The position numbers and the translations under genes were made by a program. A DNA stretch of 64,000 nucleotides. Origin: Oscillospiraceae bacterium. GTDB lineage: Bacteria; Bacillota; Clostridia; Oscillospirales; Oscillospiraceae. The notes beneath the pieces are model-generated. The model ran no database searches. It saw only the letters and a program-made list of their open reading frames with translations, and was not told the DNA's origin. Positions 813-49,790 of this stretch are shown here, one piece after another. The stretch lies in the NCBI GenBank assembly GCA_017395085.1, contig JAFPWF010000017.1, forward strand, positions 1 through 64,000. Direction: 5' to 3'. How positions within the stretch are numbered: the first letter of the stretch is position 1; each line of letters starts with the position of its first letter.

Positions 813-1199
813 ATGACTGATTATTCTTTTTACACCGATACCTACCACGGATCCCTCATCCCGGAGGAGGATTTCCCGTTCTGGCTCGGCAAGGCCGACG
901 CCAAACTGGAGGAGCTGACCTACGGTCACTGTTTCCATGAGGATCTCCCGGCTGCCGTACAGACGCGGGTCTCCCTTGCGGAGTGCGCCATCGCCGACAC
1001 GCTCTTTTCCTTCGACTCCGCATCCGCAGCACCCATAGCGGCCGCAACCATCTCGGAGGAAAAGGTCGGCTCCCATTCCGTCAAGTACAACGACGCGATC
1101 TCCGCCTCTCAGGCTCTTTCATCCCAGATCCGAAGCCTTGCCTCGGCCTATCTCCTCACCACCGGCCTGCTGAACCGGGCCTGCCGAATTCTAGATTAA
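813..1199 (+). CDS. phage head-tail connector/adaptor-like protein (hypothetical)
   Basis: 128-aa ORF directly downstream of the capsid gene in the structural module. Confidence 0.4.
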   Translation: MTDYSFYTDTYHGSLIPEEDFPFWLGKADAKLEELTYGHCFHEDLPAAVQTRVSLAECAIADTLFSFDSASAAPIAAATISEEKVGSHSVKYNDAISASQALSSQIRSLASAYLLTTGLLNRACRILD

Positions 1200-1336
1200 A
1201 TCACTTTCCATATTCCCTCGCTTCCTCGACGGAGAGCCCAGCGCAGCGGGTCTTCGCCGAAACGGCGACGAGCAACGGAATGGTCGAGCTTTCCTGACGC
1301 TACAGGGAAGCGAGTGATATGGAGTTTGCGAGGAAG
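1196..1336 (+). repeat. intergenic structured element, copy 1 of a 5-member family
   Basis: Conserved core GAGCCCAG..GGGTCTTC..CGAAA..GACGAGCA..GAGCTTTCC(YG)..(CR)GGGAAGCGA..GATA..GAG.TTG.GAGGA. Two hairpins show compensatory changes between copies. Confidence 0.6.
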
Positions 1337-1338
1337 CT

Positions 1339-1794
1339 ATGTACACGCCTCACACCGTTTCCCTCATCTCTTATCACTCCGGTACGCCTTACCTCACCAT
1401 CCTCCGCGGCGTGATGCTGCAGGGGCCGGACGGCAGGGCGGTGCTGCAGCGGGGTGAGCAGGTCTCGGACAACATCACCCTGTATATCCCGTTCTCCGTC
1501 CGTGCCGAAACCCCTTCCGGCGAAGCTGCGTCCTTCCTTTCTCCCAAAAACTATGCTGACGGCATAGATCCGGAAAAGCATTGGACGCTGCAGCCGGAGG
1601 GGGAGAGCGCGGGACGCTGCGGTTTCTTTGTCAAAGGCGAGCTTTCTGAACCGATTTCCCTGGAGGAAGCCTACGACCGGTATGACTTCGTCTATACCAT
1701 CGCCGGCTTCACCGTGCACGACTACGGCTCTGAACGACTTCAACACTTTGAAGTCGTAACTAAAGTAGCGTCTCGCTACTATCAGGATAGATAG
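1339..1794 (+). CDS. phage structural-module protein (hypothetical)
   Basis: 151-aa ORF. The start codon immediately follows copy 1 of the element, whose 3' tail supplies a GAGGAAG RBS. Confidence 0.5.
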   Translation: MYTPHTVSLISYHSGTPYLTILRGVMLQGPDGRAVLQRGEQVSDNITLYIPFSVRAETPSGEAASFLSPKNYADGIDPEKHWTLQPEGESAGRCGFFVKGELSEPISLEEAYDRYDFVYTIAGFTVHDYGSERLQHFEVVTKVASRYYQDR

Positions 1795-1795
1795 T

Positions 1796-1965
1796 TTTCC
1801 TTGTTCTTTCGTTACTCGACGAAGAGCCCAGTGCAACGGGTCTTCGTCGAAACAGCGACGAGCATCCCGACGCGCGGGAAGCGTGCGACGTACCAAGCTT
1901 GTCTCGGAATGAATGAGCTTTCGTGTTTACACGGAAGCGAACGATATAGAGCTTGTGAGGAGCAG
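1796..1965 (+). repeat. intergenic structured element, copy 3 (carries a ~50 nt internal insertion)
   Basis: Same conserved core as copies 1, 2, 4 and 5. The terminal hairpin has compensatory CGTG/CACG in place of CCTG/CAGG. Confidence 0.6.
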
Positions 1966-2073
1966 ATGCGGCACTACGAAGTCTTCACCATAGTAGCCCG
2001 TTACTACCAGTATTCTTAAACCTGTCATTGCGAGCCAGCCCGCAGGCTGGTGTGGCAATCCGTTTCTATTCCT

Positions 2074-2442: not shown

Positions 2443-2444
2443 AT

Positions 2445-2588
2445 TTAAAATACCTTTTCCATATTCCCTCGCTTCATCGAAGGAGAGCCCAGCAAAGCGG
2501 GTCTTCTTCGAAAGGTGACGAGCAACGGAATGGTCGAGCTTTCCTGTTGCCACAGGGAAGCGAGTGATATGGAGTTTGGGAGGAACCC
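2445..2588 (+). repeat. intergenic structured element, copy 2
   Basis: Near-identical to copy 1 (ttccatattccctcgcttc...gagtgatatggagtttgggagga). It ends at the start codon of the next gene. Confidence 0.6.
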
Positions 2589-3113: not shown

Positions 3114-3125
3114 GGAGCGTGACGC

Positions 3126-3565: not shown

Positions 3566-3585
3566 CGGACGTAACGCTTTTCCTG

Positions 3586-3996
3586 TCAGCCTGTGTAGGC
3601 GTCCTCTGCCGTGTTTGTGAAATTTTGCCTCGCCAGCCACTCCCGCTCCTCTTCGTTTTCGGGGATGTCGATGCGCTCGATTTTGAAAATGACCGGCCTT
3701 GTGCCGTCATTGCAGCAGGCGATCATCATCCGGTCGTCGTTGGTCCAGCCCTGCATGATGGATCCGCCCTGAAGAGCCGTGTATACATATCTGCTGACGG
3801 CATCCCAGGCTTCCCCGCAGAACTTTCCATTCATCAGATGATAGAAATCATCCTGCGTCGGAGTACGCTTCAGCAGGAAGGTGTCGCCCGGCTTGAAGAA
3901 CGGGCAGGGGCCGGATTTCGGATCGGCCAGGTATTTCTCCTGCAGATCCGGAAAACACTTTGTCTCCAGTACGGTTATCCTGCATTCATGTTTCAT
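3586..3996 (-). CDS. hypothetical protein co-transcribed with the radical SAM gene
   Basis: 136-aa ORF. Its ATG overlaps the upstream stop (ATGA coupling) and it has a good coding pattern. Confidence 0.45.
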   Translation of the reverse strand: MKHECRITVLETKCFPDLQEKYLADPKSGPCPFFKPGDTFLLKRTPTQDDFYHLMNGKFCGEAWDAVSRYVYTALQGGSIMQGWTNDDRMMIACCNDGTRPVIFKIERIDIPENEEEREWLARQNFTNTAEDAYTG

Positions 3997-4877
3997 GTTT
4001 CTTTTCCCCTCTTCGCTGACTTAGTGATCTCCTCATGATAGAAGTAATTGCACACCACAGGCGGCTCACCGAAGTGCGCACGATGCTGGTCGTCGTCGCG
4101 GATATACAGCATGCCTTCCTTTGCTGTGTACTCCCTGATCTTCTGATCCAGATCCGTCCAGTAGGCGCGGCTTTTCTTCGTGTAGATCTCACGGTACAGC
4201 TCGTCCAATTCCGGATGATGCTTGTGAATCCAATCGAGGATGCGCTTCCTGTAGTCCCCGCGCAGGTTCAGGTTCTCCAGCCATACGAGGTTGCACTGAC
4301 CCTTTGCCCGCTCGATGATCTCGATCGGGTCCGTGATGCCGGGGAAGATCGGCGAGATGAAGCATGTGGACTGGATACCCGCTTCATAGAACTGACGCAT
4401 GGCCTCCAGCCTCCGCTCAATGCTGACCGCCCGGTCCATCTCTTTTCGGAAGCCCTCGTCCAGCGTGTTGATGGACCAGGATACGTGGGCGCTGGGAAAC
4501 TGCCTGATCAGGTCGAGATCCCGCAGGATCAGGTCGGACTTCGTGGAGATGCTGATGCTGATCCCGGTGTCCAGCAACTGTTCCAGCAGGGCGCGGGTTC
4601 GGCCGTACTTTGCCTCCAGCGGCTGATAGGGGTCGGTGACCGAGCAGAAAAAAGCTTCCTTCCCGGCATACTTCCCAGGCTTATGGATCTCCGGCCAGAC
4701 CTTGACATCCACGAACTCTCCCCAGGGCTCCGGGTGGTTGGTAAAGCGCTTCATGAACGATGCGTAGCAGTATTTGCAGGCATGTGTGCAGCCCACATAG
4801 GGATTGACAGCGTAATCCGACACCGGCAGATTCGTCTTTGTCATGATATCCTTGACTTCGATTTCTTTGATAACCAT
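3993..4877 (-). CDS. radical SAM protein, spore-photoproduct-lyase/'DNA repair photolyase' (COG1533-like) family
   Basis: N-terminal NPYVGCTHACKYCYA contains the CxxxCxxC radical-SAM cluster motif in the context typical of SplB-like enzymes. Length 294 aa. Confidence 0.65.
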   Translation of the reverse strand: MVIKEIEVKDIMTKTNLPVSDYAVNPYVGCTHACKYCYASFMKRFTNHPEPWGEFVDVKVWPEIHKPGKYAGKEAFFCSVTDPYQPLEAKYGRTRALLEQLLDTGISISISTKSDLILRDLDLIRQFPSAHVSWSINTLDEGFRKEMDRAVSIERRLEAMRQFYEAGIQSTCFISPIFPGITDPIEIIERAKGQCNLVWLENLNLRGDYRKRILDWIHKHHPELDELYREIYTKKSRAYWTDLDQKIREYTAKEGMLYIRDDDQHRAHFGEPPVVCNYFYHEEITKSAKRGKET

Positions 4878-4892
4878 CTATGCACCTCCGCA

Positions 4893-7793: not shown

Positions 7794-9458
7794 ATGATTT
7801 CTACTTCTGCCCTTTATAACCAGATCCTCTCCGGCCCGCACGCCAAAGAGGTCAAAATCAACATCGCCGGGGCCGATTACGGCATGGACGTGCTGACGTC
7901 CCTGCGCACTTCGCTCGCGCCCTTTGGGAGCGGCTCGCCAACGATCGGCCTCGCTCCTGCGGCGGAGATCACGGCCTCGCTGTACCTGGCCTCGTCCAAT
8001 GTGCCACGCATGGCGGCCTTAAGGCCTTATGTGCGGCTGGTCAACGACACCCAGCAGTCCGAATGGCTGCCGCAGGGCCTGTTCTATGTTGACACCCGGC
8101 AGCAGGATGAATCGGGACTCCTGACCCTGCACGGCTACGACGGCATGCTGAAGGCCGAGCGCCCCGCGCCGTATTCCACCCTGCAGTGGCCCGCGCTGGA
8201 CATGGATGTGGTCGCCGAGATCTGCAGCATCCTCGGCTTTTCCGTGGACGCGAGGACCACGGCGATTATGACTTCCGGGTTCCGTATTAATCTTCCGTCT
8301 CAGTACACCATGCGGGAGACGCTGAAGTATATTGCGGCGCTCTACGGCGGCAGCTTTGTCCTCACGGCCTCCAACACGCTGCGCCTGCTGCCTCTGTGGC
8401 AGCGGGGGAGTTCTGCCAATCACGACCTGACGGCCTCCGTGCAGTCCGTCTCCGTCAGCCCGGCCTTCCCGGCCTGCACGGGCATCCGCTTCCTGACGGA
8501 GGACAATGCGGAGTTCTTTGCCGGCAGCGAGACGGGCTACGTATATGAGATCGCTTCGCCCTTTGCCACGCAGGCCGCGGCCAATGCGCTCTTAAACCGC
8601 ATGCAGGGCTTTGTCTACCGGCCGTATTCCGCGGAGGGTGCAATCCTCAACCCGGCCGCCGAGCCGGGGGATACGGTGCTGATCCCCTCCGGCAATACCA
8701 CTGCGCTCTCGTCCCTCTTCACCCTCTCCCGCAGCTTCGACTCGCTCTTCCCGGCGGATTGCTCCGCCCCGGAGGACGAGGAGCTCGACCACGAGTACCC
8801 GTATGAGTCGACTGCGGACAGGGTATACGAGAGGAAACTGCAGAATATGCAGTCGGAGCTCAACGTCCAGGCGCAGGCCATCTCCGCCAAGGTCAGCCGC
8901 ACGGGCGGGGATTCCCGCAGCTTCGGCTGGTACCTGGACGCCGACCGCTTCTCTCTCTACTCCGACACGGTTGAAGTGATGCATGTGGATGATGAGGGGC
9001 TCACAGTCCGGGGTACGATCACAGCCGACGCCGGCTGTATCGGCGGCTGCGACATCGAAAACGGCACCCTGAAGATCGCGAACGCCAACATCGAGAACCT
9101 GAACGCCTCCAAGATCACCGCGGGAACCCTGAACGTGGACCGCATCGGCACCGGCTCGATCACCGGCGGGAAGATCGCCGACGAGACCATCGAGTCATAT
9201 AACCTGGACGACGGCTCCGTGGTGAACCGGGTACTGGGCTCGAGCTCCGTTTCCTACGGCAAGACGAGCTTCCAGACCACGCTGGACCAGGTGGGTACCA
9301 ACAAGGCGAACATCGACGTGCTGTACGGTTACTTCACGGGCTACGCGCACTTCAGCCAGCTGGAGATCGACAACGGCTTCTACTACGGGGGCAAAACAAT
9401 AGGCATCGCCACCGCAACCATCAGCGGAAGAACTCTACAATATTTGGGGTGGGTATAA
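7794..9458 (+). CDS. phage tail protein (tail tip/minor structural protein)
   Basis: 554-aa ORF following the tape-measure gene. Size and position are typical of a distal tail/tail-associated protein. Confidence 0.5.
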   Translation: MISTSALYNQILSGPHAKEVKINIAGADYGMDVLTSLRTSLAPFGSGSPTIGLAPAAEITASLYLASSNVPRMAALRPYVRLVNDTQQSEWLPQGLFYVDTRQQDESGLLTLHGYDGMLKAERPAPYSTLQWPALDMDVVAEICSILGFSVDARTTAIMTSGFRINLPSQYTMRETLKYIAALYGGSFVLTASNTLRLLPLWQRGSSANHDLTASVQSVSVSPAFPACTGIRFLTEDNAEFFAGSETGYVYEIASPFATQAAANALLNRMQGFVYRPYSAEGAILNPAAEPGDTVLIPSGNTTALSSLFTLSRSFDSLFPADCSAPEDEELDHEYPYESTADRVYERKLQNMQSELNVQAQAISAKVSRTGGDSRSFGWYLDADRFSLYSDTVEVMHVDDEGLTVRGTITADAGCIGGCDIENGTLKIANANIENLNASKITAGTLNVDRIGTGSITGGKIADETIESYNLDDGSVVNRVLGSSSVSYGKTSFQTTLDQVGTNKANIDVLYGYFTGYAHFSQLEIDNGFYYGGKTIGIATATISGRTLQYLGWV

Positions 9459-9721
9459 TTATGCTTCAATTAAAAACCGCGCAGGGTTTCACCCTGCCTA
9501 TTACATGGATCGGAGTCAGCGACTTTGACGGATCCCTCCGCTTCGAGACCCCGGAGACGGACCTTGCGACCCTGTTCTCTGTCTTCAGCGATCCTTCGCA
9601 CACATCCGCCCTGACCCGCATCTTCGATGAAGACGAAAAGACCTTCTCCGGCTTTACCGCCTTCAAAGGCATAGAAAAAATGGCCGGAGGCGCCATTGTA
9701 ATCCGTCTTCTTCCTGGTTAA
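9449..9721 (+). CDS. hypothetical phage protein
   Basis: 90-aa ORF overlapping the previous stop (ATGA-type coupling). Confidence 0.4.
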   Translation: MGIIMLQLKTAQGFTLPITWIGVSDFDGSLRFETPETDLATLFSVFSDPSHTSALTRIFDEDEKTFSGFTAFKGIEKMAGGAIVIRLLPG

Positions 9722-9845
9722 TCGAATAAGAGCCCAGTGTAACGGGTCTTATTCGAAAAAGGACGAGCAGCGTAGCGACTGAGCTTTCCTGACGCTTCAG
9801 GGAAGCGAATGGATACGAAGCTTGTGAGGACGCGGGAACGGGAAC
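9721..9845 (+). repeat. intergenic structured element, copy 4
   Basis: Same family (gagcccagtgtaacgggtctt...gagctttcctgacgcttcagggaagcgaatggatacgaagcttgtgaggacg). Confidence 0.6.
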
Positions 9846-9890
9846 TACGGTGATCCGGCTGATGCCCGCATAATCTTTTTGGAGGACAAA

Positions 9891-11708: not shown

Positions 11709-11726
11709 CACGGGGAGTTGAGTATC

Positions 11727-14429
11727 ATGCCCATCATCAAATGCAAAATGTGCGGCGGCGATATAGACCTCGCTGCGGATAAGACTTTTGGAACCTGCGA
11801 ATACTGCGGCTCCACCATGACGCTGCCAAAGGTGTCGGACGAACAGAAGGCGGCCGCATTCAACCGCGGCAACCACTTCCGGAGGATCGGCGAGTTTGAC
11901 AAAGCTCTTGCCGTCTATGAGCGCATCGTCGCGGAGGACGACACCGATGCGGAGGCGCACTGGTGCTGCGCCCTCTGCCGCTTCGGCATCGAGTATGTGG
12001 AGGATCCCGCCACCTATGAATGGATGCCGACCTGCCACCGTGCAAGCTTCGACAGCTTCCTGGAGGATGTGGACTACCTTGCCGCGATAGAGAATTCAGA
12101 CGGTATAACGCGCCGTCAGTACCAGAAGGATGCCGCGAAGATTGCAGAGGTGCAGCGCGGCATTCTGGCGACCTCCCAGAACACGGAGCCGTATGACGTA
12201 TTTATCAGCTACAAGGAACTGGATGAAAACGGCAGCCGTACCCGCGACAGTATTTTGGCGCAGGAAATCTACTACCGGCTGACGGAAAAGGGCTGGCGGG
12301 TGTTCTTCTCACGCATATCCCTGGAGGACGTGCCCGGCACGCAGTATGAGCCGTACATCTTTGCTGCTCTGAATAGTGCAAAGGTGATGATTGTTGTTGG
12401 AACCAGCGCAGAAAATCTCAATGCGGTGTGGGTCAAGAACGAGTGGAGCCGCTTCCTATCCATGATGCGCAAGGATCGCTCGAAACTCCTGATTCCCTGC
12501 TACCGCGACATGGATCCTTATGATCTTCCGGAGCAGCTCGCGGTGCTGATGAGCTATGACATGGGGAAGATCGGTTTTGTGCAGGATCTGATCCGCGGCG
12601 TGGATAAAGTGTTGACCGCGGAGAAGAAGGAGCCGGTTAAAGAGACGGTGAAAGAAACCGTTGTCGTCCAGCAGCCCGGCGGCGGGCCGAATGTTACGGC
12701 GCTTCTCAAACGCGGCCAGCAGGCGCTTGAGGACAGCGAATGGGACAAGGCCAGAGAATACTATGATCAGGTTCTCAACATGGATGCTGAGAACGCAGAG
12801 GCGTTCCTCGGTCTGTTCCTGGCAGGCGAAAAGTGTGAAGAAGAGAACGCTTATATAGAGAGGGCCTGCACGAAGAAAGGCGCGACAGAGACCCTGAATG
12901 TTCCGTCCGCGGCTGACCGCATCAATGAGAATGCTGCAAAGTACAAGCTCGACCATTACCTATTCGATGGCGACATTCGAAAACTGTTCGATTATGATTT
13001 ACAATATCCAACCACACTCCGGACGCAAAAGCTTGTCGCAGAGCAGGAAAAAGCAAGCTTTCAGAATGATAGGAATCTCAACCGGGCATTTCGCTATGCA
13101 AAGGGCGATGTGGCAGCGAGACTGAACGCATTCAAAACGCAGTTGTTTGCCGGGTTGGACCGTAACGTCACACAAGCAGAGGAACAGGAAGAAGCAGCTA
13201 GAGAAGAGAAGAAAGCTGCATACGAGGTGTTCCTGGACAATGCGGAAAATCTTGCACAGGAGAAAAACGAGCAGGCACAGGCGAGGAAAGAAGAAGATTA
13301 TCAGGCACTTTGCCGCCGTATTTCAGAAGCGAAAACGATAAAAGAATTTGACGTTGCAAAATATAAGCTTTTCCCCTACTTCAATGACTATAAGGACAGT
13401 GCGGAGCAGTACAAGCGCATAGAAGAAGGAATTGCAAGGTTGGAAAAAGAGGCTGCAGAAGAAGCGGAAGCGGAACGCCTGCGCAAGGAAGTCGAAGCAA
13501 AAGCCGTCGCGGAAGAAGCTGAGCGTCAGGAGGAGCAGAAGCGTATTGCAGCAGAAAAGGCAGATAAGAAACGTAAAAAAACGATCGCAACTAACACGCT
13601 GATCATTGTTGCCTGCATTGTGTTTGTAACCGTGTTGAAGTTCGTGATCATTCCTAACCAGAGACTCAATAAATCAGTGGCAATGATTGATGCTGGCGAT
13701 TACAAGGCGGCATACCTTCTTCTAGATGGTATGGATTATAAAAATAGCAAGGAGCTTCAGGAAAGCATAAAATTGCAATACGAAAAAGAATGCATTTCTG
13801 AAGCGCAGGTCCGTTCATATGTTCCTTTTGGTTCTTATGAACAGGATAACGATTCCGAAAACGGGAAAGAAGACATAGAGTGGCTTGTGCTAGCAAAGAA
13901 AGATGATAGAATCCTAGTCATTAGCAGATATGCTCTAGACTGCCAGCGATTCAACACTTCAGCGACAAGTGTTACATGGGAAACCTGTTCAGTGCGTAAA
14001 TGGCTAAATGAAACATTTCTGAACAACGCTTTTTCCGAGGAAGAGCGTGCCATGATTCCCAATATGATTGTCACTGCGGACAATAACCCTGACTACAGCA
14101 TAAGTCCAGGAAAAAGCACGACGGATCAGATGTTCCTGTTTAGCATTAGAGAAGCGAATAACTATTTCAATACAAATAATGCACGGCAGTGTCAGGGAAC
14201 TCCTTACTGCTTTGCACAGGGGGCCTATAAAGACAACAGTGGTAATTGTTGGTGGTGGTTGCGGACCCCTGGATTTGATACCGAACACGCTGCGATCGTT
14301 CGTAGTGACGGCTCCATCTATTCCACCTCGGATATTAACGGGGATGGCTCTTTATATTCCAGCGGTTATGGAGTCACTCTCAAAGATGTAGCCGTCCGTC
14401 CTGCGATGTGGATAGATTTGACGACATAA
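11727..14429 (+). CDS. membrane-anchored TIR-domain protein with an N-terminal zinc ribbon + TPR module and a C-terminal extracytoplasmic domain
   Basis: CKMCGG..CEYCGS zinc ribbon. TIR motifs (YDVFISYKELD..., WVKNEWSRF with conserved Glu). Long coiled coil. Transmembrane helix (TLIIVACIVFVTVLKFVII). DUF6273-like C-terminus. Confidence 0.7.
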   Translation: MPIIKCKMCGGDIDLAADKTFGTCEYCGSTMTLPKVSDEQKAAAFNRGNHFRRIGEFDKALAVYERIVAEDDTDAEAHWCCALCRFGIEYVEDPATYEWMPTCHRASFDSFLEDVDYLAAIENSDGITRRQYQKDAAKIAEVQRGILATSQNTEPYDVFISYKELDENGSRTRDSILAQEIYYRLTEKGWRVFFSRISLEDVPGTQYEPYIFAALNSAKVMIVVGTSAENLNAVWVKNEWSRFLSMMRKDRSKLLIPCYRDMDPYDLPEQLAVLMSYDMGKIGFVQDLIRGVDKVLTAEKKEPVKETVKETVVVQQPGGGPNVTALLKRGQQALEDSEWDKAREYYDQVLNMDAENAEAFLGLFLAGEKCEEENAYIERACTKKGATETLNVPSAADRINENAAKYKLDHYLFDGDIRKLFDYDLQYPTTLRTQKLVAEQEKASFQNDRNLNRAFRYAKGDVAARLNAFKTQLFAGLDRNVTQAEEQEEAAREEKKAAYEVFLDNAENLAQEKNEQAQARKEEDYQALCRRISEAKTIKEFDVAKYKLFPYFNDYKDSAEQYKRIEEGIARLEKEAAEEAEAERLRKEVEAKAVAEEAERQEEQKRIAAEKADKKRKKTIATNTLIIVACIVFVTVLKFVIIPNQRLNKSVAMIDAGDYKAAYLLLDGMDYKNSKELQESIKLQYEKECISEAQVRSYVPFGSYEQDNDSENGKEDIEWLVLAKKDDRILVISRYALDCQRFNTSATSVTWETCSVRKWLNETFLNNAFSEEERAMIPNMIVTADNNPDYSISPGKSTTDQMFLFSIREANNYFNTNNARQCQGTPYCFAQGAYKDNSGNCWWWLRTPGFDTEHAAIVRSDGSIYSTSDINGDGSLYSSGYGVTLKDVAVRPAMWIDLTT

Positions 14430-14772: not shown

Positions 14773-15693
14773 ATGGATACTATGGCGTTGTCATCAGTTG
14801 AATTAAGAAAATACAATCCAAGTACTCCAGATGAATTTTACAAATTGGCCGCTAGGACAGCAAGCTTCTATTATCACACACGATTAGAGACGGCTATAAA
14901 GATTCTTTCTGGGGAAGAAATAGTGTTTTTTATCAGCCCGATAAGCAACATGAATGATGAAAACGAAATAATTCTTCACGAAAGAGAACAAAATTGCACC
15001 TATATACTTTGCTTTTCGCATATACAAACTGAAAGCATTCCCATGTGGTATTTGTATAGTGGGATAACAGGAGAGGGATCACGAATAGGATTCACGCCAG
15101 CAAGAATGAGAGATATTCTTGAAAGCGCTATTGAAGTATACCCTGTCTATCGGAGGCAGATAGATACTTCCAAATCGTTACACATCGACGATGACTACGC
15201 TGTTGAGTATGGTTGGGTATTCTATCGCAATAAAGAGGACAATTCTATCAAGTATAAAGGAGACAAGTGTATTATACGTGACTCAATGCATTCATTTGAA
15301 AAAGGCAATTTTTTTGTCAAAGACAGTGAATGGAGTTATGAAAAAGAATTTCGTATCGTATTTAAACTAAATCGCACCTTACCAGAGCAAATAGCACTCG
15401 TGCTAAATAAAAAGAAGATGATGGCAGATGATGGATTGAAAGTGACACTATCGCCAAGGATTAGTGAGGCAGATATGGAAATGATAAAAGCCAAAATGGG
15501 TTTACCGGCTAAGCACATTTCAACAAGTAAGATAAAAGCCAAAATGGATTTGCTTAGCCGAAATCGGCAGAGTATAGTGGAGCATTTTCCGGAGGTCGTT
15601 TCTGGACTAAATATGGATGAACTAGAGTCAATCATCAAGCAAGTTGAAGCCGAACTCATTGTGCAGAAAGAAAAGGAGTTAGCCCATGTCTAA
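14773..15693 (+). CDS. DUF2971-like hypothetical protein
   Basis: Low-GC gene. The SPISNMNDENE segment resembles the DUF2971 'FNDPxE' motif. Confidence 0.35.
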   Translation: MDTMALSSVELRKYNPSTPDEFYKLAARTASFYYHTRLETAIKILSGEEIVFFISPISNMNDENEIILHEREQNCTYILCFSHIQTESIPMWYLYSGITGEGSRIGFTPARMRDILESAIEVYPVYRRQIDTSKSLHIDDDYAVEYGWVFYRNKEDNSIKYKGDKCIIRDSMHSFEKGNFFVKDSEWSYEKEFRIVFKLNRTLPEQIALVLNKKKMMADDGLKVTLSPRISEADMEMIKAKMGLPAKHISTSKIKAKMDLLSRNRQSIVEHFPEVVSGLNMDELESIIKQVEAELIVQKEKELAHV

Positions 15694-20093: not shown

Positions 20094-20240
20094 GAACTCT
20101 CGAAAGAGAGCGGTAAGTAAACAGCCAGCCTATACGAGATGCGCGAGGGACAAGCCCGTTGACCGCACGGCAACCTCCCGGAGAGAAAGGTGCCAAAGCT
20201 TGAACGATAGGTATAATCCAGTCCCGCGACTGGTATTTTT
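20094..20240 (+). ncRNA. candidate small structured RNA / cis-regulatory leader (unidentified class)
   Basis: Extended -10 promoter TGgTATAAT (20079-20087). A ~145-nt GC-rich region with several internal helices. It ends in an intrinsic terminator (ccagtc-ccgc-gactgg + TATTTTT) about 55 nt before the next start codon. Confidence 0.35.
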
Positions 20241-20297: not shown

Positions 20298-21182
20298 GTG
20301 TGTAAAGCTTTGCCAGGATTAACAATAGGAAACTTTATTTCACTACTTATTCCAGCAGTTATAATTAGTATCATCCCGCTTGGAATTATAAATTTCATTG
20401 CAGGAATAAGTGAGAATAAGTTTGCAACAAGTAACGCAGGAATGATAATCATAAATGGCGGTGGCGTATTATTAATTACATTTTTGTTATATCTTGGTAC
20501 ATATACTCCATGGAAGAATCAAAACACAGAGACAACGAATCAAATTGAGAATCAAATTGAGGTTGTGACTCCACCGGTCAGTTCCTATAGCATCGAGAAA
20601 AAAGTAGAAAAACAAATTGAAAAAGATGGTTTGAAATCCGATGGGAAGATCCATGTATACCTGGTAGGCAGCGGGGAGACTGTGAAAGCGAAAAAAAGCA
20701 GTTCCATCAAGAGCATGACATATTATGAGGAATCGGATCACCTGATTATCAATTTCAACGGAAAAGAATATGTATTTGCAAATGTCAGTTCGTCTCTCTG
20801 GAAATCCTTCAAGGAAGCTTCCTCATCTGATGCATTCTACGATAGTCATTTCAAAGGGAATAAGTCTTATTGGATCAATGACTATAACGGCAAAAACGGC
20901 GATAAAATAGTTATGGAACATGTGAGTTCGACCGCACAATCGTACAGCTCGTCGGACTATGGCTATTCAAGATCTTCAAGCAAGAGCATCGAATCAGAAT
21001 ATGCTGAATGTAAAGATTGTGGCAGAATATACAGCAAAGATGAGATGTGGGAATTAGGCGGATATTATATCTGTGAGAACTGCGTTGAGGATGGGGAGTA
21101 TATCTGGGATGAAGGTTCTGGAGAACTATATTATGAAGATGATTATTGGGATATGATGCATGAGCGGGAATTTGGTTATTAA
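20298..21182 (+). CDS. membrane protein with a KTSC domain and a C-terminal zinc ribbon
   Basis: N-terminal transmembrane helices. KTSC-like block (IKSMTYYEESDHLIINFNGKEYVFANVSSSLWKSFKEASS). CKDCGR..CENC. Confidence 0.45.
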   Translation: MCKALPGLTIGNFISLLIPAVIISIIPLGIINFIAGISENKFATSNAGMIIINGGGVLLITFLLYLGTYTPWKNQNTETTNQIENQIEVVTPPVSSYSIEKKVEKQIEKDGLKSDGKIHVYLVGSGETVKAKKSSSIKSMTYYEESDHLIINFNGKEYVFANVSSSLWKSFKEASSSDAFYDSHFKGNKSYWINDYNGKNGDKIVMEHVSSTAQSYSSSDYGYSRSSSKSIESEYAECKDCGRIYSKDEMWELGGYYICENCVEDGEYIWDEGSGELYYEDDYWDMMHEREFGY

Positions 21183-33712: not shown

Positions 33713-33744
33713 TTCTTATTCCATATTACGAGGGGCGTTTGAGC

Positions 33745-36305: not shown

Positions 36306-37766
36306 ATGCTGGAAGATAAAGTCAGGGAAGTATTTGCTGATATGATTGTTTTGAAAGACCCGCAACGCAGCGAGTATTTTTCAAATCTCAGTATTCCCTC
36401 ATATATGCGCGATTGGCTGGTCATGAAGTTTTCGGATGAAGACGGTTCGATTGACTACGACAGCGTTCGTCGTTATATCAAGCGGTACATTCCGAGTCGT
36501 GAGGACTTCGAGCAGTACAAGTTCCAGATGGTAAATGGTGAAATTGTTCAGTTTCTTGCCCGTGTTCGTGTTTCTGTCGATGTTAAGCGTGGTAAGACAA
36601 TGTTTGAACTGCCGGATTTCGGCGGTTCAAGAGGCGGTGCTGCCGGTGTCGTTGCTTATGATGTGGCTGAAGAGTGGCAGGAAACGCTGCTCCGCGAGAG
36701 CGAAAACTGGGGTATTGTCACATTATCCTGGGTTATGGAGGGGACACCATCCAATCCAAAGGGCGTTATCAGCATGGTAGATTACAGGCCGTTCTGCCCG
36801 TATTCAGTTGATCTGGAAGTTTATCGCGAAGCCCGGCGTGAATTTGACATTCATGAGTGGATTGATACGGTAATCCGGGCTGTGGATTATAATCCGGACG
36901 GTTACTGCGACAAGGATGGCAATGTGAGCGAGGAGACAAAGCTCTTCTTTCTGAGAAGGCTTCTGCCGTTTGTTGAGAAACGGGTTAACTTGATTGAGCT
37001 TGCTCCAAAAGGCACAGGCAAAAGCTACGTTTTTGAAAAAATCAGCAAACGCGGCTGGCTGATCAGCGGTGGTACTGTATCAAGGGCGTCTCTCATTTAT
37101 GATAATGCCAAGAAAACCGGCGGGTTGCTGACACGATTTGATTATGTCGGCTTTGATGAAGTGCAGTCCATCACATTTGAGCAGCCAGGTCAGATCCAAC
37201 AGGCGTTGAAACACTATATGGAATTTGGCGAGATTAAAGGCTTCGATGCCATGCTAACGGCGGATGCGGGCGTTATTGTTCTTGGCAACATTAACGCAGA
37301 TCGCTTTGATATCAATAAAAACATGGTTGAGCATATCAGTGATGTGTTTGGTGAATCTGCAACCTTGGACCGTTTCCACGGGTTTATCCCTGGATGGGAG
37401 ATCCCGAGAATGACTACGGGGATGATCGCCAAAGGCTGGGCGATTAATACGGAATATTTCGCAGAAGTGATGCATGCGCTTCGGGATGATCTGAGTTACG
37501 CGGCTATTGTGGATGAGCTGATTGATTATCCCTCAAACGCAGATAAACGCCATATGACCGCAATTAAACGTCTGTGCACTGCTTTTATGAAGCTTTTGTT
37601 CCCGCATGTTCAATCGGTAGAGGATATTGATAAGCAGGACTTTATCAAGTATTGTCTGAATCCCGCTATAGAGATGCGGTCGGTTATCTACAGGCAGCTC
37701 TGCATTATCGATCCGAAAGAATATAATGTGAAAAGCAAGCAGATACCTGAAGTTGTTTGTGTGTGA
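36306..37766 (+). CDS. brxL: BrxL-like AAA+ ATPase (N-domain + ATPase; appears to lack a Lon-protease-like C-terminal domain)
   Basis: N-terminal MLEDKVREVFADMIVLKD..YMRDWLVMKF resembles the BrxL N-terminus. Walker A APKGTGKS. Walker B YVGFDEVQS. Only 486 aa. Confidence 0.5.
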   Translation: MLEDKVREVFADMIVLKDPQRSEYFSNLSIPSYMRDWLVMKFSDEDGSIDYDSVRRYIKRYIPSREDFEQYKFQMVNGEIVQFLARVRVSVDVKRGKTMFELPDFGGSRGGAAGVVAYDVAEEWQETLLRESENWGIVTLSWVMEGTPSNPKGVISMVDYRPFCPYSVDLEVYREARREFDIHEWIDTVIRAVDYNPDGYCDKDGNVSEETKLFFLRRLLPFVEKRVNLIELAPKGTGKSYVFEKISKRGWLISGGTVSRASLIYDNAKKTGGLLTRFDYVGFDEVQSITFEQPGQIQQALKHYMEFGEIKGFDAMLTADAGVIVLGNINADRFDINKNMVEHISDVFGESATLDRFHGFIPGWEIPRMTTGMIAKGWAINTEYFAEVMHALRDDLSYAAIVDELIDYPSNADKRHMTAIKRLCTAFMKLLFPHVQSVEDIDKQDFIKYCLNPAIEMRSVIYRQLCIIDPKEYNVKSKQIPEVVCV

Positions 37767-41843: not shown

Positions 41844-41877
41844 AGAACCGTTATCGTAAGTGCCGGGGGGTGCTTTT

Positions 41878-42801
41878 GTGGCGAAGGACAACAGACAGAA
41901 GATTAAGCTTTTGTATCTCATGGAGATGCTGCGGCAGGATACGGACGAGCAGCACCCGCTGACTACCAGTGAGATCTGCAGGCGGCTGGGGGTGAAGGGC
42001 ATCACCTGCGAGCGGCGCACCGTCGGCATGGATATGAAGGTGCTGAATGATTTCGGATACGAGGTCATGTCCTGCACGGTCGGGCATGAAAAGGCCTACT
42101 ATGTGGACGACCGCAGTTTTTCCGTACCGGAGATCAAGATTCTCATGGACGCGGTGCAGGCGGCAAAGTTCATCACGCCGGGAAAGAGTGATGCGCTGGT
42201 TTCAAAACTCGCCGCACTGGGCGGCAGCCATCAGGCGGAGATCCTGAAGAGCAACATCGTCTGTTTCAACACGCGCAAGCACACCAACGAGATGATTTTC
42301 TATAATGTTCAGGCGTTGGAGGATGCGATCCGGGAGCGGAAAAAGGCTTCGTTTCTGTACTTCGACCTGAATGAGAAGCGGGAGCGGGTATACCGCAGGG
42401 ACGGCGCGAGGTACGTGGTGGATCCCATGGCGCTCGTGTACGACGAGGACAATTATTATCTCCTGTGCTACAATCTGAAGCACGAAAACGTGACCACCTA
42501 CAGGGTAGATCGGATGGAACGGGTTTGCGTGGAAGAGGAGGATGTCTGCCCGCAGGCAATTGTGGAAAGGGACATCCACGGCTACACTTCGCAGGTCTTC
42601 AAGATGTTCAACGGCGAAGCGAAGGAGTTTACCATCGTGTTTGACGAGTCCCTGCTCGGAGCGGTTTATGACCGGTTTGGGGAAGAGGTCGAAGTCCGGC
42701 GGGTCGGGGAGAAGCTCTGCAGCATTACGGTCACCGTGCAGGACAGCCCGGTGTTCCGTGGCTGGCTTGCGCAGTTCGGCGATCTGGTTAACATCGCATA
42801 A
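41878..42801 (+). CDS. second WYL-domain transcriptional regulator (paralog of the gene at 22180; high-GC copy)
   Basis: N-terminus KIKLLYLMEMLRQDTDEQHPLTTSEICRRL parallels RILYILQILQEGSDQEHPVTIVEIITQL. About 300 aa. Confidence 0.6.
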   Translation: MAKDNRQKIKLLYLMEMLRQDTDEQHPLTTSEICRRLGVKGITCERRTVGMDMKVLNDFGYEVMSCTVGHEKAYYVDDRSFSVPEIKILMDAVQAAKFITPGKSDALVSKLAALGGSHQAEILKSNIVCFNTRKHTNEMIFYNVQALEDAIRERKKASFLYFDLNEKRERVYRRDGARYVVDPMALVYDEDNYYLLCYNLKHENVTTYRVDRMERVCVEEEDVCPQAIVERDIHGYTSQVFKMFNGEAKEFTIVFDESLLGAVYDRFGEEVEVRRVGEKLCSITVTVQDSPVFRGWLAQFGDLVNIA

Positions 42802-45459: not shown

Positions 45460-46050
45460 ATGAATTATCAGGAGATTATTGCAAAAGTCGGCATTTCCTT
45501 GGCTCCCATGGAAATTGAAAGCGTCGAAGATATGGAGTTCATGCCGATTGACCAGGGCTTTGTGACCAGGATTCTGGTTGGCAAACGATGGGTGAAGGTC
45601 TTGCTGGTTGAGGCTGAACCCGAGGTCTGCAGCCTGATGCTGGCGGATCTGAAGAAAAAGTACAACAGTTTTTATCGGCAGCATCGCTGCCTGGTGCCCG
45701 GGGTTCGCAAGGACTGGATTCGTTGCCCGGAAACCAATCACTGCGCTTCCTGTCCATACGGCAGGGAACCGGAGCAGTACGACCCGGGACTCGTAAGTCT
45801 TGAGGGAATGTTCGAAGCGGAGGAGGACGTCCCGGATCCGGGGTTTTCCGTGGAAAGGATCATGGAATGGAGGGAGATGTTCAACGCGCTGGAAGAAGTG
45901 AGCCCTGAGGCAGTTCGGGCGATAAAGCTGAAGATAGCCGGCTTCACCCTTCGTGAGATTGCGGACAGCATGGGCAAATCGGTTGCGGCAGTTAACCGCC
46001 TGATTGAGAAGGCACGGGCGTTTTTCGAGGATTATCTGGCGCAAAAATGA
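45460..46050 (+). CDS. sigma-70 region-4-type HTH protein (ECF/phage sigma-like)
   Basis: C-terminal IKLKIAGFTLREIADSMGKSVAAVNRLIEKARAFF matches the sigma region 4.2 HTH. Confidence 0.45.
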   Translation: MNYQEIIAKVGISLAPMEIESVEDMEFMPIDQGFVTRILVGKRWVKVLLVEAEPEVCSLMLADLKKKYNSFYRQHRCLVPGVRKDWIRCPETNHCASCPYGREPEQYDPGLVSLEGMFEAEEDVPDPGFSVERIMEWREMFNALEEVSPEAVRAIKLKIAGFTLREIADSMGKSVAAVNRLIEKARAFFEDYLAQK

Positions 46051-46109: not shown

Positions 46110-47024
46110 TTACAGGAATTCTCGCAGGGCATCGCTCCGGCTGGGATGACGCAGTTTCCGGATGGCTGTCGCCTCAATCTGGCGGATGCGTTCACGCGTC
46201 AGGCCATACGCCTGCCCGACTTCCTCGAGTGTTTTCGGTACGCCGTCGTCAAACCCGTAGCGCAGTTCCAGGATCTTCCGCTCGCGCGGCGCCAGGGTAT
46301 CCAGAGCCCTGCGGATCTCTTCTTTCATCCGGGCTTCCATGGTGATCTCTTCCGGGTCGGCGGCATTTTCGTCAGGGATCACGTCAAGCAGGGTGCTGCT
46401 GTCGTCTTCCGGGCAGAGCGCCGCGTCCAGGCTCAGCGGCTCCAGAGTGTACATCCGGAGTTCCCGCACGGTCTTTAAAGGCAATGCAGCTGCCGCGGCA
46501 ATTTCCTCCTCGCCGGGCTCGCGTCCGAGCTTCTGCCGCAGCTCGTCTGTGGTTCGGATCAGCCGCCTGCAGTGTTCCGCAATATGCTCCGGGAGCCTGA
46601 TCACGCGGCTCTGTTCGGCGGCGGCCCGCTGGACAGCCTGCCGGATCCACCAGACTGCGTAGGTGGAAAAGCGGGTACCGCGGCCGGGGTCATACTTTTC
46701 CACGGCTCTCATCAGCCCGAGGTTGCCCTCCTGGATCAGGTCCTCCAGAGGGAGATCAACCCTCTGGAAGCGCTTGGCGACGTAGACCACGAGGCGCAGG
46801 TTTGCTTCGGCCATTTTACGCTTTGCCTGCTCGTCTCCGCCGGCTGCGGCTTCCGCCAGCTCTTTTTCTTCCTCCGGCGAAAGCAGGGAGTATTCCCCGA
46901 TTTCTTTCAGGTACCGGTTTAGACTGTCATCGGCAGGGGAGTCATCGGGCTCTTGGTCCGGAATTTCGTCTCCCTCTTCCGGGTAGATCTCCGCGTCATA
47001 CCGGAGAACCGGGTCAAACATCAC
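46110..47024 (-). CDS. RNA polymerase sigma factor, sigma-70 family (regions 2-4)
   Basis: Region 2 ([11 protein letters not shown]..., [36 protein letters not shown]) and region 4 ([18 protein letters not shown]). Confidence 0.7.
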
Positions 47025-47037
47025 GGTTTCCTCCTTG

Positions 47038-49026
47038 CTATTCCTTCCGGTACGTCCGGCAGGTGTAACCGTCGGCGCGCAGCTTCAGCCCGGGCAGCCA
47101 GTCCGGCGTCTGCCCCATCAGCCGACAGATTTCCTCCACGTCGTCCGATTCGATGATCACTTCGTCATGCACATGCCCGACGACCGGGTACCGCCACAGG
47201 CGTTTCATGGCATCCGCCAGCAGGTCGCGGCTGATGGCCTGGACAATGTTTTCCGTCAGCTTCGGCCCGTAGGTTTCGATGCGGCTCCAGTGCCTGGCGG
47301 CGTCGAGACCGTCATAGGTGATGACCTCGCTGCCGTAACGGCCTTCCTCGATTTTGGCTCTCAGATAGCAGAGCTCCCGTCCGGAGGGAATGGCAACCCG
47401 CAGCATCTGATTCTTATACTCAAAGCTAAGCGGTCCGGCCACGGCAGTCATCCTCTCGGTGACGGCCTGTTTTGCGGCGCGGTCCACGTCCCACCAGAAT
47501 TTCACGATCCTGGGGTTTGCCTCCCGCCAGGAACTGACCAGTTCGTCCAGTTCCTCTTCCGGCGCGCCCATCTCGAGAGCGCCCATGCTTTTCAGCGCCC
47601 CGGTGCTGCCGCCGTAACCCAGCGCCAGTTCGGCGATCTTGCCTTTCTGGCGGAGCTCTCCGTTGATGCCGTGCTTTACCACGGGTACGCCAAACATTTT
47701 GCTGGCGCTTGCGGCGTATATGTCTCCGCCCTCATCGAATACCCGTTCCCTCCAGCGTTCACCGGCAAGGTGCGCGAGCACTCTGGCTTCAATGGCGCTG
47801 AAATCCGCCACTGTGAATTTCTTCCCACTGCTGGGAATGAATGCGGTTCTCACCAGTTCGGAGAGTACGGCAGGTACTTCGCCGTAGAGGAGCGCTACGG
47901 TTTCCTCATCGCCGGCCTTTACCAGCGCCCTCGCCACATCCAGATCCGGGAGTTTGTTCTGCGGCAGGTTTTGCAGCTGGACCATCCGCCCGGCCCAGCG
48001 GCCGCTTCTGCTTGCTCCGTAGAATTGGAACATGCCGCGGCATCTGCCGTCGCTGCAGACGCAGTTCAGCATCGCCTCGTATTTCCGTACGCTGCTTTTG
48101 GCTGCCTGCAGCCGCAGCGAGAGGACTTCCTGTATCAGAGGGTCTGTGCTTTCTTTCATCAGGGCTTTGGCTTCCTTCCTGCCGAGGCTGTCCGCTTTCA
48201 GTCCGCGGCCCTGCAGCCACTCTTTCAGTTGAAGGACTGAGTTCGGGTTTTCCAGCCCCGTCAGGTCCCTCATGCATCTCGTGAGTTTCGCCCTGGCGCC
48301 GGCGTCCATCTTCACGGCCTGCTGCACGAAGTCCGTGTCGATCCGGATGCCCCGGTCGTTAATTTCCTGATCGAGGGCATATTCCTCCCAGACCCGGTCG
48401 GGAACGGGGAAGTTCTTCAGCTTTTCCTGTATCTGCAGTTCCGCATCCACGTCCCGCCTGTTGTAGGCAAGGAAGCGCTCCCATTCCAGCGGCGCATCCG
48501 CCGGACGCGTAAAACGCCGTTCCGCAAACAGCGTCTGCTGGCTGTCATTGCCTTCAGCCTCCTTCGTCATGGTCGGTACGCAGAACTTCCGGATCAGCTC
48601 TTTCCCTTCGCTCAGTTTCTGCTTTTCCAGCCCGAGCACGGCGCCGGTCATTGCCAGCCCCGGGGGCAGCCCGTTGTAGGCGCTCAGCACCATGCTGCAT
48701 CGCCAACCGGCGGGGTCGAGGAAGGGGAGACCGTGGTAGCCCGGTACCAGTTCCGGTTTGATTCTGTTCAGCCAGCGGCTCAGGCAGACGCGCTCGAAGC
48801 CTGCGTTGTAAGCCCATTTCAGCACGCGTCCGTCATTCAGCGCTTCCAGGATCTCTTCCGGCGGCAGCTGTCCGCCGGCCACGTCGTATACAAGCGGCTC
48901 CGCGCCGTCCACGCTGACGCCGAAGAGCAGGATGTCGAAATCCGGGTCTTCTGCGTAGCGGTACACGCCGCATTTGGAGATGTCCGCCCCGCTGCGGGTT
49001 TCCAGGTCAATGCTCAGGGTTTTCAT
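47038..49026 (-). CDS. family-A DNA polymerase with an N-terminal 3'-5' exonuclease domain (phage type)
   Basis: Exo I motif LSIDLETRS. Pol A palm motifs (e.g. [28 protein letters not shown]). Confidence 0.7.
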
Positions 49027-49523
49027 GCCGTGCACCATCCGTATCTCTTCCCGTTCCGGATGCGGTTGATCATGCTGATATCCACGTCAAAGTTCCAGGC
49101 AAGCTGCCTGTCCGTGTGCCCTGCGAGCATGCCGAAGCGGATGCCTTCTACATCCGCAAGGTCCAGTTTGCAGCGCTTCCCGCCCTGAAGGTAGATGTCG
49201 TGGTTGTTTTCCGCGGCATTGCCAAAGCGCAGGTTTTCGGGCCGGTTGTCCGTGGGATCTCCGTTGTTGTGCAGCACCATCATGCCTTCCGGGCAGGGGC
49301 CGAGAAAAGCGGCGGCGACCATGCGGTGCACCTGCTCCTCTTTGTTGTGGTGAATGTAAAATGACAGATGTCCGCTCCGGTCGCGCACCCGGGGCCGGAT
49401 GATGTTGTTTTCATCCAGTCTCCTGCGGCGTCCGCAGTCATGGCAGCGGATTCTTCCCGCCGTACTGGCCTGCAGGATGCCTTCGTAACCGGGAACATCT
49501 TTCCATGTTTCAGGTTCCATCAT
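49023..49523 (-). CDS. HNH homing-type endonuclease
   Basis: HNNGDPTDNRPENLRFG..NNH is an HNH_3-type motif. 166 aa. Confidence 0.6.
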   Translation of the reverse strand: MMEPETWKDVPGYEGILQASTAGRIRCHDCGRRRRLDENNIIRPRVRDRSGHLSFYIHHNKEEQVHRMVAAAFLGPCPEGMMVLHNNGDPTDNRPENLRFGNAAENNHDIYLQGGKRCKLDLADVEGIRFGMLAGHTDRQLAWNFDVDISMINRIRNGKRYGWCTA

Positions 49524-49654
49524 GTTCTCCCAAATAAAAGATTCTCCTACTCACTCCTGCCGCACACAGGCGGCAGGAGCTTTCGGCGTTTCAGACGTTA
49601 TCGGGGCGGGGGAGAAAGGAGAAAGCCCCTTGCCCCGTCCGGTTAAATCCGTAT

Positions 49655-49790
49655 CCCTCGTCCCCTCGAAGAAGAGCCCAACGCAGTGGGTCTTCATCGA
49701 AAAAGGACGAGCAGCGTAGTGACTGAGCTTTCCCGTTACGCCGGGGAAGCGAATGGATACGCAGCTTGTGAGGACGTCATCCGAGAAAGT
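49655..49790 (+). repeat. intergenic structured element, copy 5 (in the replication module, antisense to flanking genes)
   Basis: Same conserved core. Hairpins carry compensatory variants (cccaac..gtggg; gctttcccg..cggggaagc). Confidence 0.6.

Follow-up and report, generated by a model that had tools for sequence, protein, structure and literature searches.

A structured, dispersed repeat of Oscillospiraceae chromosomes and phages, with six copies in a 64-kb prophage-like window

In a 64,000-nucleotide stretch of an Oscillospiraceae bacterium (GCA_017395085.1, contig JAFPWF010000017.1, positions 1 to 64,000; hereafter the window), a family of structured elements recurs between genes of what looks like one large prophage, and the locus raises the question of whether these elements are a device of the phage or repeats that have settled in it. 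A first-pass annotation of the same DNA described five members, most of them upstream of late genes, and argued for a functional RNA, or DNA hairpin, as opposed to neutral repeats. However, the family behaves as a mobile repeat that is present in many copies in the chromosomes of Oscillospiraceae and in phages, and a dedicated regulator of late genes is not supported, since copies occur in both orientations, in-frame inside genes and variably among related phages. The opposite notion of neutral repeats without structure is excluded as well. The reading favored here, with a probability of about 0.6 and on the basis of sequence comparison, is that of a non-autonomous mobile element whose fold and GAGGA tail would make insertions into operons tolerable.

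Copies in the window and their common fold

A covariance model built from 66 homologs (R1) and run with filters off recovers six copies in the window, with E-values from about 4e-26 to 6e-8; five of them score approximately 102-111 bits, copy 2 is split into matches of 42 + 38 bits, and the next best match has E = 0.22. The five copies described previously, all on the plus strand, are real and were correctly located, as seen both in the sequence and with the model, and the exact pattern GAGCCCA-N7-GGGTCTT occurs 5 times in the window. Nevertheless, the family does not end there: a sixth, more divergent copy lies on the minus strand (56008..55897) inside a helicase open reading frame (ORF) and was detected by a 3-mismatch scan for the core of the first hairpin, P1.

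Copies 1-3 fill three successive junctions between head-tail genes, and copy 4 precedes the lysis genes. Copy 1 (1200..1338, plus; core 1226-1334; 105 bits) occupies the entire gap between the stop codon TAA (1197-1199) of the head-tail adaptor gene and the ATG at 1339, and consists of a leader (1200-1225), the P1 hairpin (1226-1260, with bulged G 1236, bulged A 1240 and triloop 1243-1245), a linker (1261-1271), the P2a/P2b/P3 rod (1272-1329), and a GAGGA tail (1330-1334) that serves as a Shine-Dalgarno sequence, all on the plus strand. Copy 2 (1795..1965, plus; core 1816-1961; R1 matches 1803-1897 and 1905-1951; tail GAGGA 1957-1961) owes its extra length to an internal insertion of about 40 nt (1865-1904), which partly duplicates P3 and the 3' strand of the element itself (GGGAAGCG...AAGCTTGT), a sign of recombination between copies. 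Copy 3 (2443..2588, plus) comprises a leader (2443-2476) and a core (2477-2584; 101.9 bits), while copy 4 consists of the core only (9722..9832, plus; 109.8 bits), beginning directly after the stop codon of gene 9449-9721 and ending in the tail GAGGACG (9826-9832). Copy 5 (49640..49776, plus; leader 49640-49665; core 49666-49776; 106.3 bits) lies in the replication region and is antisense to its neighbors, as had been noted before; its 3' end abuts the stop codon of a Gp2.5-like single-stranded DNA-binding protein (SSB) gene (49777-50328, minus), and its leader is complementary to the 3' strands of P3 and P2b. The core of copy 6 (55897..56008, minus; 110.7 bits) is inserted antisense and in-frame within the gene of an SNF2-type DNA helicase (54990-56570).

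The fold, derived from 135 unique sequences, has a core of about 107-113 nt, preceded in some copies by a leader of 1-37 nt, and is organized in two domains, the P1 hairpin and the P2a/P2b/P3 rod. P1 contains 15 bp arranged as 10 + 3 + 2, has an invariant G bulge and an invariant A bulge, is capped by a GNA triloop, and is connected to the rod by the linker AGAGGACGA. In the rod, the long-range helix P2a (GCA-NN with NN-(U)-UGC) is followed by a symmetric GRA/GRA loop, P2b (NNG with UNN), and tandem G·A together with one covarying pair, and the variable hairpin P3 closes it. The 3' tail is GAGGACGA, and two copies of GAGGACGA bracket the rod; when aligned antiparallel, these segments give G·A, A·G, G:C, G·A, A·G, C:G, G·A, and A·G, so that, as modeled, they can form tandem sheared G·A pairs. 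Their juxtaposition is supported by L123, one of the L-numbered loci retrieved from genome and viral collections, in which Watson-Crick pairs (CAGGCA/UGCCUG) replace the tandem G·A beside P2a. The unpaired purines are invariant in the consensus.

The compensatory changes that had suggested a conserved structure are real, although they had been attached to the wrong copies. Copies 1 and 3 have GC/GC as their inner P1 pairs, copies 2 and 4 have GU/AC and copy 5 has AC/GU, and the second-hairpin variant GCUUUCGUG/CACGGAAGC (also written GCTTTCGTG/CACGGAAGC) belongs to copy 2 and not to copy 3, whereas GCTTTCCCG/CGGGGAAGC had been rightly assigned to copy 5. The covariance-model search proposed at that time yields 138 further members in Oscillospiraceae genomes and phage contigs, and the covariation persists in this larger set. 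In a MAFFT alignment of 66 sequences, not fitted to any structure, 95.3% of the cells are standard-paired as opposed to 31-45% in slid controls, and 25 of the 33 pairs show double changes. Across the 138 sequences, in an alignment that was itself fitted to the covariance model, the corresponding values are 96.3% and 32-46%, compensatory double changes on the one strand occur at 29 of the 33 pairs, and none of 500 shuffles reaches the observed pairing values. P2a alone occurs as GC/GC, AG/CU, AC/GU, CC/GG, and UC/GA, and is extended to 10 bp in L132. Moreover, G·U and U·G cells outnumber A·C and C·A cells by 8 to 1 (360 vs 45), which indicates that the displayed strand is the folding strand, either as RNA or as single-stranded DNA (ssDNA).

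Spread, insertion sites and ends of the family

The pattern AGCCCA-N7-GGGT-N(8-22)-GACGAGCA retrieves about 20 true homologs from IMG/VR, and a longer pattern finds at least 118 stretches in species-representative genomes. On the retrieved loci, R1 gives 126 + 61 matches, often several per 8 kb, and the local density can be as high as 5-6 copies per 8-13 kb. The hosts are Oscillospiraceae or unclassified Clostridia, including Intestinimonas, Flavonifractor, Pseudoflavonifractor, Lawsonibacter, Oscillibacter, Faecousia, Sporobacter, and many rumen or gut metagenome-assembled genomes (MAGs), except for a few chance hits that are rejected by the model (such as in Prevotella, Methylacidiphilales, and Brevundimonas). 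Near-identical copies form subfamilies inside a single genome, and at least seven contigs start within the element, which therefore breaks assemblies. Tandem arrays also occur: L104 carries 2.2 units of 117 nt (3757-4010, minus), in which the unit tail GGAGUUU pairs with the leader AAACUCC of the next unit, and in L065 (2277-2729, minus) two copies lie between duplicates of a 75-nt segment that includes the start of lepA, with a third copy beyond them.

The element seems to be a large dispersed repeat family that is apparently undescribed and belongs to no named family. In agreement with the earlier failure to match it to a ribozyme or riboswitch, no Rfam 15 family falls on it: at the gathering threshold the only match in the window is a SAM (S-adenosylmethionine) riboswitch elsewhere, and scans by E-value gave no match to the element in copies 1-3 (E<=10) or in nine canonical loci of other genomes (E<=0.1). 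Resemblance in sequence had brought hammerhead, HDV, twister, pistol, hatchet, and hairpin ribozymes, HEARO/omega-RNA, and attC into consideration, but none of them withstood the Rfam scans and inspection, and the literature searches found no description of the element. [quoted passage not shown]

Among phages, the element tracks the host clade and not the phage lineage, as judged from its absence, with R1, from PV036438, a complete 49-kb phage of the same candidate order, and from 518 kb belonging to 80 phages that share the helicase. Nor did blastn match copy 4 to any of 50,697 phage records, but this method is too insensitive for a structured element of 120 nt. The family is resident in one Oscillospiraceae clade and spills into the phages that infect it.

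A second, unrelated repeat family is present at 2025-2065 of the window as GTCATTGCGAG-hairpin-GGCAATCCG, with an Intestinimonas form GTCATTCTGAGC...GAAGAATCCG; it adjoins copy 2 and many copies elsewhere (flanks of L130, L034, L047, L114, and L150), and the intergenic regions of Pseudoflavonifractor are mosaics of several such repeat modules.

Mobility is seen in the occupied and empty sites. The window helicase has about 50 extra residues (approximately amino acids 294-343, nt 55869-56018) exactly at copy 6, which are absent from two annotated homologs of Ca. Heliusvirales and from 80 IMG/VR homologs. In L062, the element and accessory modules are inserted in-frame and antisense in the interdomain linker of carA, the product being about 79 residues longer than E. 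coli CarA, and in L123 a sense, in-frame copy inside the head-tail adaptor gene gives a protein of 151 aa, as opposed to about 120-128 in its relatives. The synteny of phages with positions 1-3.5 kb of the window was recovered by tblastn among the retrieved loci; the junctions of copies 1 and 2 are overlapping ATGA stop/start sequences in L019 and L123, and that of copy 3 is a plain GGAGG spacer in L019 and L001. At the junction of copy 2, L112 carries a sense copy and L042 an antisense copy. For gene 1339-1794, only one relative was found in IMG/VR, at a contig end. Furthermore, four sense copies lie between the tape-measure, gpD-like, gpU, gp25, and gpJ genes of the unrelated, myovirus-like tail module of L028.

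With respect to both neighbors, as judged from crude gene calls, 54 copies lie in the same orientation, 30 in the opposite one, 17 between convergent, and 10 between divergent genes. The three antisense frames are open in 0.91, 0.70, and 0.67 of the copies compared with 0.48 of shuffles, and this scarcity of stop codons explains why antisense in-frame insertions are tolerated. Most apparent ORFs that span the element are spurious N-terminal extensions.

GAGGA followed after 4 nt by ATG or GTG is found in approximately 14 of 143 copies, so that the tail can donate a Shine-Dalgarno sequence by its position. It had been proposed that the 3' tails of all four late copies supply the ribosome-binding site, which holds for copies 1 and 3, where GAGGA (2580-2584 in copy 3) stands 4 nt ahead of ATG 1339 and ATG 2589, respectively, but not for the other two: the tail of copy 2, together with ATG 1966, opens only a 17-codon remnant ORF (1966-2019), and the holin gene after copy 4 has its own GGAGG 46 nt farther on. 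Neither promoters nor intrinsic terminators were found inside the elements, and no promoter-like or terminator-like site coincides with any window copy.

The ends of the element can be read from direct repeats in its flanks, which reach a local-alignment score of at least 12 in 14% of 112 copies, as opposed to 0.3% for mismatched flank pairs. The downstream repeat almost always starts 1-2 nt past GAGGACG, whereas the upstream one ends 1-37 nt ahead of P1. The element is thus sharply delimited at its 3' end, and its 5' end bears a leader that is specific to the subfamily. The duplicate mostly comprises the 3' coding portion of the gene upstream together with the stop codon, as for smc (23-70 nt, five species), rubrerythrin (21-31 nt, four to five species), and the window copies 2 (about 50 nt) and 4 (about 40 nt). 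For copy 2, the left segment (1744..1794, plus) encodes the functional C-terminus of the product of gene 1339-1794 (HFEVVTKVASRYYQDR and stop) and the right, displaced one (1966..2019, plus) is the remnant ORF (MRHYEVFTIVARYYQYS and stop). For copy 4, compared by eye, the left segment (9683..9721, plus; AGGAIVIRLLPG and stop) is the present C-terminus of gene 9449-9721, and the displaced one (9833..9873, plus; AGTGTTVIRLMPA and stop) begins 1 nt past the tail; the native GGAGG and the holin ATG at 9891 come after it, and the listed ORF reaches back to TTG 9879. Copy 6 has a duplicate of 12-15 nt, of which the right repeat (55884..55895, minus; ggcggcggtgat) begins 2 nt past GAGGACG and its partner lies at 56022-56033 (tgccgcagtcac), encoding ITAA and VTAA in the helicase frame. 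At the lepA loci, what has been duplicated is 33-35 nt from the start region of a gene in divergent orientation. Copies 1 and 3 lack a duplicate and their tail is joined to native context just ahead of the ATG, which for copy 3 is the Shine-Dalgarno context of the empty junctions in L019 and L001.

The displaced gene-end copy cannot be assigned to any obvious ORF, and the period from the left to the right copy is not divisible by three. Readthrough or bypass linking both duplicates was considered and rejected, as the period modulo 3 takes the values 0, 1, and 2. In the rubrerythrin loci L041, L046, L086, and L116, the functional left copy of the C-terminus is recoded with AT-rich synonymous codons and forms a hairpin (CUUGAAA-GAUA-UUUCAAG), in which L116 has an A:U in place of a G:C pair through changes on both sides, while the displaced right copy keeps GC-rich native codons.

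Mode of spread and competing explanations

In the non-autonomous mobile element proposed here, the fold would be the recognition target of a trans-acting, probably host-encoded mobilizing activity. The stems drift while the loops, bulges, and geometry are fixed, which suggests that the fold is probably recognized by a trans-acting activity specific to the host clade, and such recognition would explain why the fold is kept in every subfamily. Its service in mobilization, the kind of enzyme involved, and the identity of the molecule as RNA rather than ssDNA are all inferences. Since the element would usually be co-transcribed with its neighbors, the compact fold and the single-stranded 3' GAGGA could make junction insertions nearly harmless: the upstream gene would retain a stop codon through the duplicated gene end or a stop-rich leader, and the downstream gene would receive a Shine-Dalgarno sequence 4-10 nt ahead of its start. 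Near-neutrality of this kind would explain the build-up of copies between tightly packed late genes.

Several observations weigh against this mobile element. The duplications are long and variable (12-75 nt) and detectable in only 14% of the copies, and terminal inverted repeats are lacking, the complementarity between 5' flank and 3' end being no better within copies than between copies (p = 0.32). No recurrent cluster of transposase, reverse transcriptase, or HUH genes was found within 8 kb of the copies in 118 loci and 1,713 ORFs by crude clustering. The same junctions, such as the 3' end of rubrerythrin and smc-ftsY, are occupied in several genera, which could reflect a retained function instead of repeated insertion, and sense copies exceed antisense ones (54 vs 30). 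Moreover, between the left and right copies of the gene ends, 56 codons differ synonymously and only 4 non-synonymously, a pattern unexpected for a transposition footprint that decays neutrally. It is possible that the gene end and the element were imported together from a diverged allele by homology-facilitated illegitimate recombination, that the displaced copy is continually refreshed by recombination with empty alleles, or that it has an unrecognized use.

A bolder proposal, which we regard as a long shot, is that the element is a new bacterial mobile RNA, either a retroposon resembling short interspersed nuclear elements (SINEs), whose fold is a handle for a host reverse transcriptase or nuclease, or the carrier of a new self-processing motif. 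Such an RNA would spread between orthologous genes of different species and carry the donor gene end along, which would account for the sharply defined 3' end, for duplications that are long and variable, and for gene ends that differ only synonymously.

The elements could instead be dedicated cis-regulatory RNAs, that is, protein- or ligand-binding leaders or translational operators that expose or hide GAGGA, recruited widely and multiplied in late operons. This seems unlikely, even though window copies 1-4 and the four copies of L028 are in sense orientation, the conserved tail places a Shine-Dalgarno sequence 4 nt ahead of the start codon in roughly one copy out of ten, the unpaired purines are invariant, and the places after rubrerythrin and smc are constant in several genera. 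In addition, the window subfamily has a leader capable of pairing with the 3' strands of P3 and P2b, which would give a switch-like alternative fold. However, this pairing is real only for that subfamily (-15 to -20 kcal/mol), and a switch between 5' leader and P3 was rejected as a feature of the family, where it amounts to -10.1 kcal/mol within a copy and -9.7 between copies. A riboswitch or cis-leader would hold a constant sense position ahead of functionally coherent genes, whereas the genes adjoining the element are incoherent and those downstream are unrelated, about 40% of the copies are antisense or lie between convergent or divergent genes, some are within ORFs, and related phages do without the element.

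RNA processing is an improbable role, in which the element would be a substrate of RNase III or of another endonuclease, or a new self-cleaving ribozyme, that cuts polycistronic mRNAs and leaves stabilizing hairpins and a 5' end close to the Shine-Dalgarno sequence. The RNase III sites of phage T7 are several related, structured elements of about 60-100 nt between the genes of polycistronic mRNAs, with an irregular hairpin and internal loops, and the position of our element and its modeled rod-like P2a-P2b-P3 domain would fit such intercistronic sites. The T7 sites, unlike it, are specific to the phage and are not known to be mobile or to occur in host chromosomes or inside ORFs. The SAS/ESAS of Cluster K mycobacteriophages are a conserved sequence with a ribosome-binding site repeated upstream of many phage genes, but SAS is a 13-bp motif without a large covarying fold and is not known in host chromosomes or in-frame. 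The intercistronic location in late operons without promoter or terminator, the rod of about 18 Watson-Crick pairs with tandem G·A and conserved internal loops, and the sharp 3' boundary are consistent with processing, and the Correia elements are a precedent for RNase III cleavage of transcribed repeats (PMC10969869). On the other hand, no Rfam 15 ribozyme model matched even at E = 10, and antisense and intragenic copies retain the fold where processing would be pointless or harmful.

It is just as improbable that the element is an ssDNA hairpin moved by an HUH (Y1) or DDE enzyme, as a relative of REP/RAYT or of the IS200/IS605 PATE, or as an IS1634-like MITE. The strand asymmetry fits ssDNA and RNA equally, and the bulged bases of P1 are reminiscent of the hairpins that HUH enzymes recognize. 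Insertion of IS1549 and IS1634, of the IS1634 family, yields variable long direct repeats of 8-514 bp (PMC2266710), but these are DDE elements of 1.5-2 kb with inverted ends, and neither such a gene nor such ends are seen with the element. Long-range helices such as P2a and P2b, with loops rich in G·A, are found more typically in RNA; the element also lacks terminal inverted repeats, and no transposase of these kinds was seen nearby by crude clustering within 8 kb. REP/BIME-RAYT systems have hairpins of 20-40 nt with a GTAG-type 5' head and a REP-flanked RAYT, whereas the element has a 107-nt two-domain fold without that signature and, by the same crude clustering within 8 kb, no recurrent HUH gene near its copies. 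In IS200/IS605 PATEs, the left-end and right-end (LE/RE) hairpins are mutually similar, the 5' target is fixed, and no duplication is made; here P1 and P3 are unrelated, the 5' flanks are variable, and duplications are present. Integron attC sites have R''-L''...L'-R' boxes, a crossover point in GTTRRRY, and one bottom-strand hairpin carrying extrahelical bases, whereas the element consensus, on inspection, lacks both RYYYAAC and GTTRRRY ends and is organized in two separate domains. With MITEs it shares its small size, non-coding nature, many copies, and polymorphism of presence and absence, but not the terminal inverted repeats or a short target-site duplication of fixed length.

The least probable explanation is a SINE-like retroposon, with a transcript ending in ...GAGGACG(A) that is reverse-transcribed from its 3' end, sometimes including part of the upstream gene, and then integrated, which is consistent with the fold on the transcribed strand, the subfamilies resembling master copies, the absent terminal inverted repeats and, as in SINEs, the defined 3' end with variable 5' extent and long variable target duplications, but not with the absence of a reverse-transcriptase gene near the copies (crude clustering) or of an A-rich or other tail, the lack of a known bacterial precedent, and the synonymous gene-end differences, which suggest diverged alleles and are left unexplained by simple retroposition within a genome.

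Regarding its general behavior, the element resembles intergenic repeats of other bacteria. The bcr1 repeat of the Bacillus cereus group is a comparable transcribed intergenic repeat and, as with ERIC/IRU of Enterobacteria, its size is about 125-155 nt. ERIC and bcr1 each consist of one long imperfect palindrome based on terminal inverted repeats, and their target duplications are short and of fixed length, whereas the element has two dissimilar domains, conserved purine loops, a defined 3' end without terminal inverted repeats, and duplications of 12-75 nt, and is also found in phage operons. ERIC/IRU elements are, in the same way as the element, intergenic, multi-copy, co-transcribed, folded as RNA, occasionally intragenic, and restricted by clade in their copy number (PMC10969869). 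Rickettsia palindromic elements, of about 100-150 nt, are inserted in-frame in unrelated protein genes and tolerated in the product (PMC10969869), as the element is in the helicase, CarA, and the head-tail adaptor, but they differ in taxon and sequence, and the element is mostly intergenic with a fold that is not a simple palindrome. The Correia/NEMIS repeats of Neisseria are mobile, lie just upstream of genes, alter expression signals, and give RNA that is processed by RNase III (PMC10969869). However, Correia elements are bounded by terminal inverted repeats of 26 bp and a duplicated TA and carry promoters as well as an IHF site, whereas the element provides a Shine-Dalgarno sequence and not a promoter.

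Prophage context and meaning for Oscillospiraceae

The late genes of the prophage-like window (1-11.2 kb) comprise the capsid end, head-tail adaptor, tail completion, tape measure, tail proteins, holin, and endolysin. Further genes encode an S24 repressor, two sigma factors, a DNA polymerase, an HNH protein, the Gp2.5-like SSB, an exonuclease, a primase-helicase, and the SNF2 helicase, and an integrase gene is located at 57.5-58.8 kb. The two phage sigma-factor genes are convergent (45460-46050, plus; 46110-47024, minus), and late transcription thus probably proceeds via a phage sigma factor and not via the repeats. The free-standing HNH endonuclease gene (49023-49523, minus) overlaps by 16 nt the start of the DNA polymerase gene (47038-49038, minus) and lies about 140 nt from copy 5; in other loci, no association of such a gene with the element was seen.

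Between the lysis genes and the repressor, an island of about 30 kb (11500-41500) has a lower GC content at third codon positions (GC3). It is probably a phage-borne defense island and includes genes for a TIR-TPR-DUF6273 protein (11718-14429), an SPFH protein with zinc ribbons (15686-17521), WYL/WCX regulators (22180-23154 and 41860-42801), two large proteins without a Pfam match (29507-33712, 1401 aa; 33739-36096, 785 aa), and a BrxL Lon-like ATPase (36306-37766). A SAM-I riboswitch aptamer without P4 is found in this low-GC3 island (20127-20213, plus; 47.8 bits, gathering score 44.4), upstream of ORF 20298-21182 (294 aa, membrane-like N-terminus), which has no obvious link to sulfur or SAM metabolism, an unusual setting for an S-box.

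Oscillospiraceae are abundant and poorly studied gut and rumen bacteria, and the element bears on the quality and annotation of their MAGs, as it breaks assemblies, gives rise to spurious ORFs on its stop-poor antisense strand, and is inserted in-frame into essential genes. The covariance model of the element, which detected six copies in the window but none across 567 kb of related phages, provides a clean marker of the host clade of a phage. Moreover, the family is a model for a selfish sequence in compact phage operons, which folds away and supplies translation signals, and may represent a possible route to new intergenic regulatory RNAs. The combination of a covarying fold with a precise 3' end, the lack of inverted ends, and long duplications that diverge only synonymously is unlike the known footprints of prokaryotic transposition and, thus, the mobilizing activity, once identified, could reveal a new mechanism.

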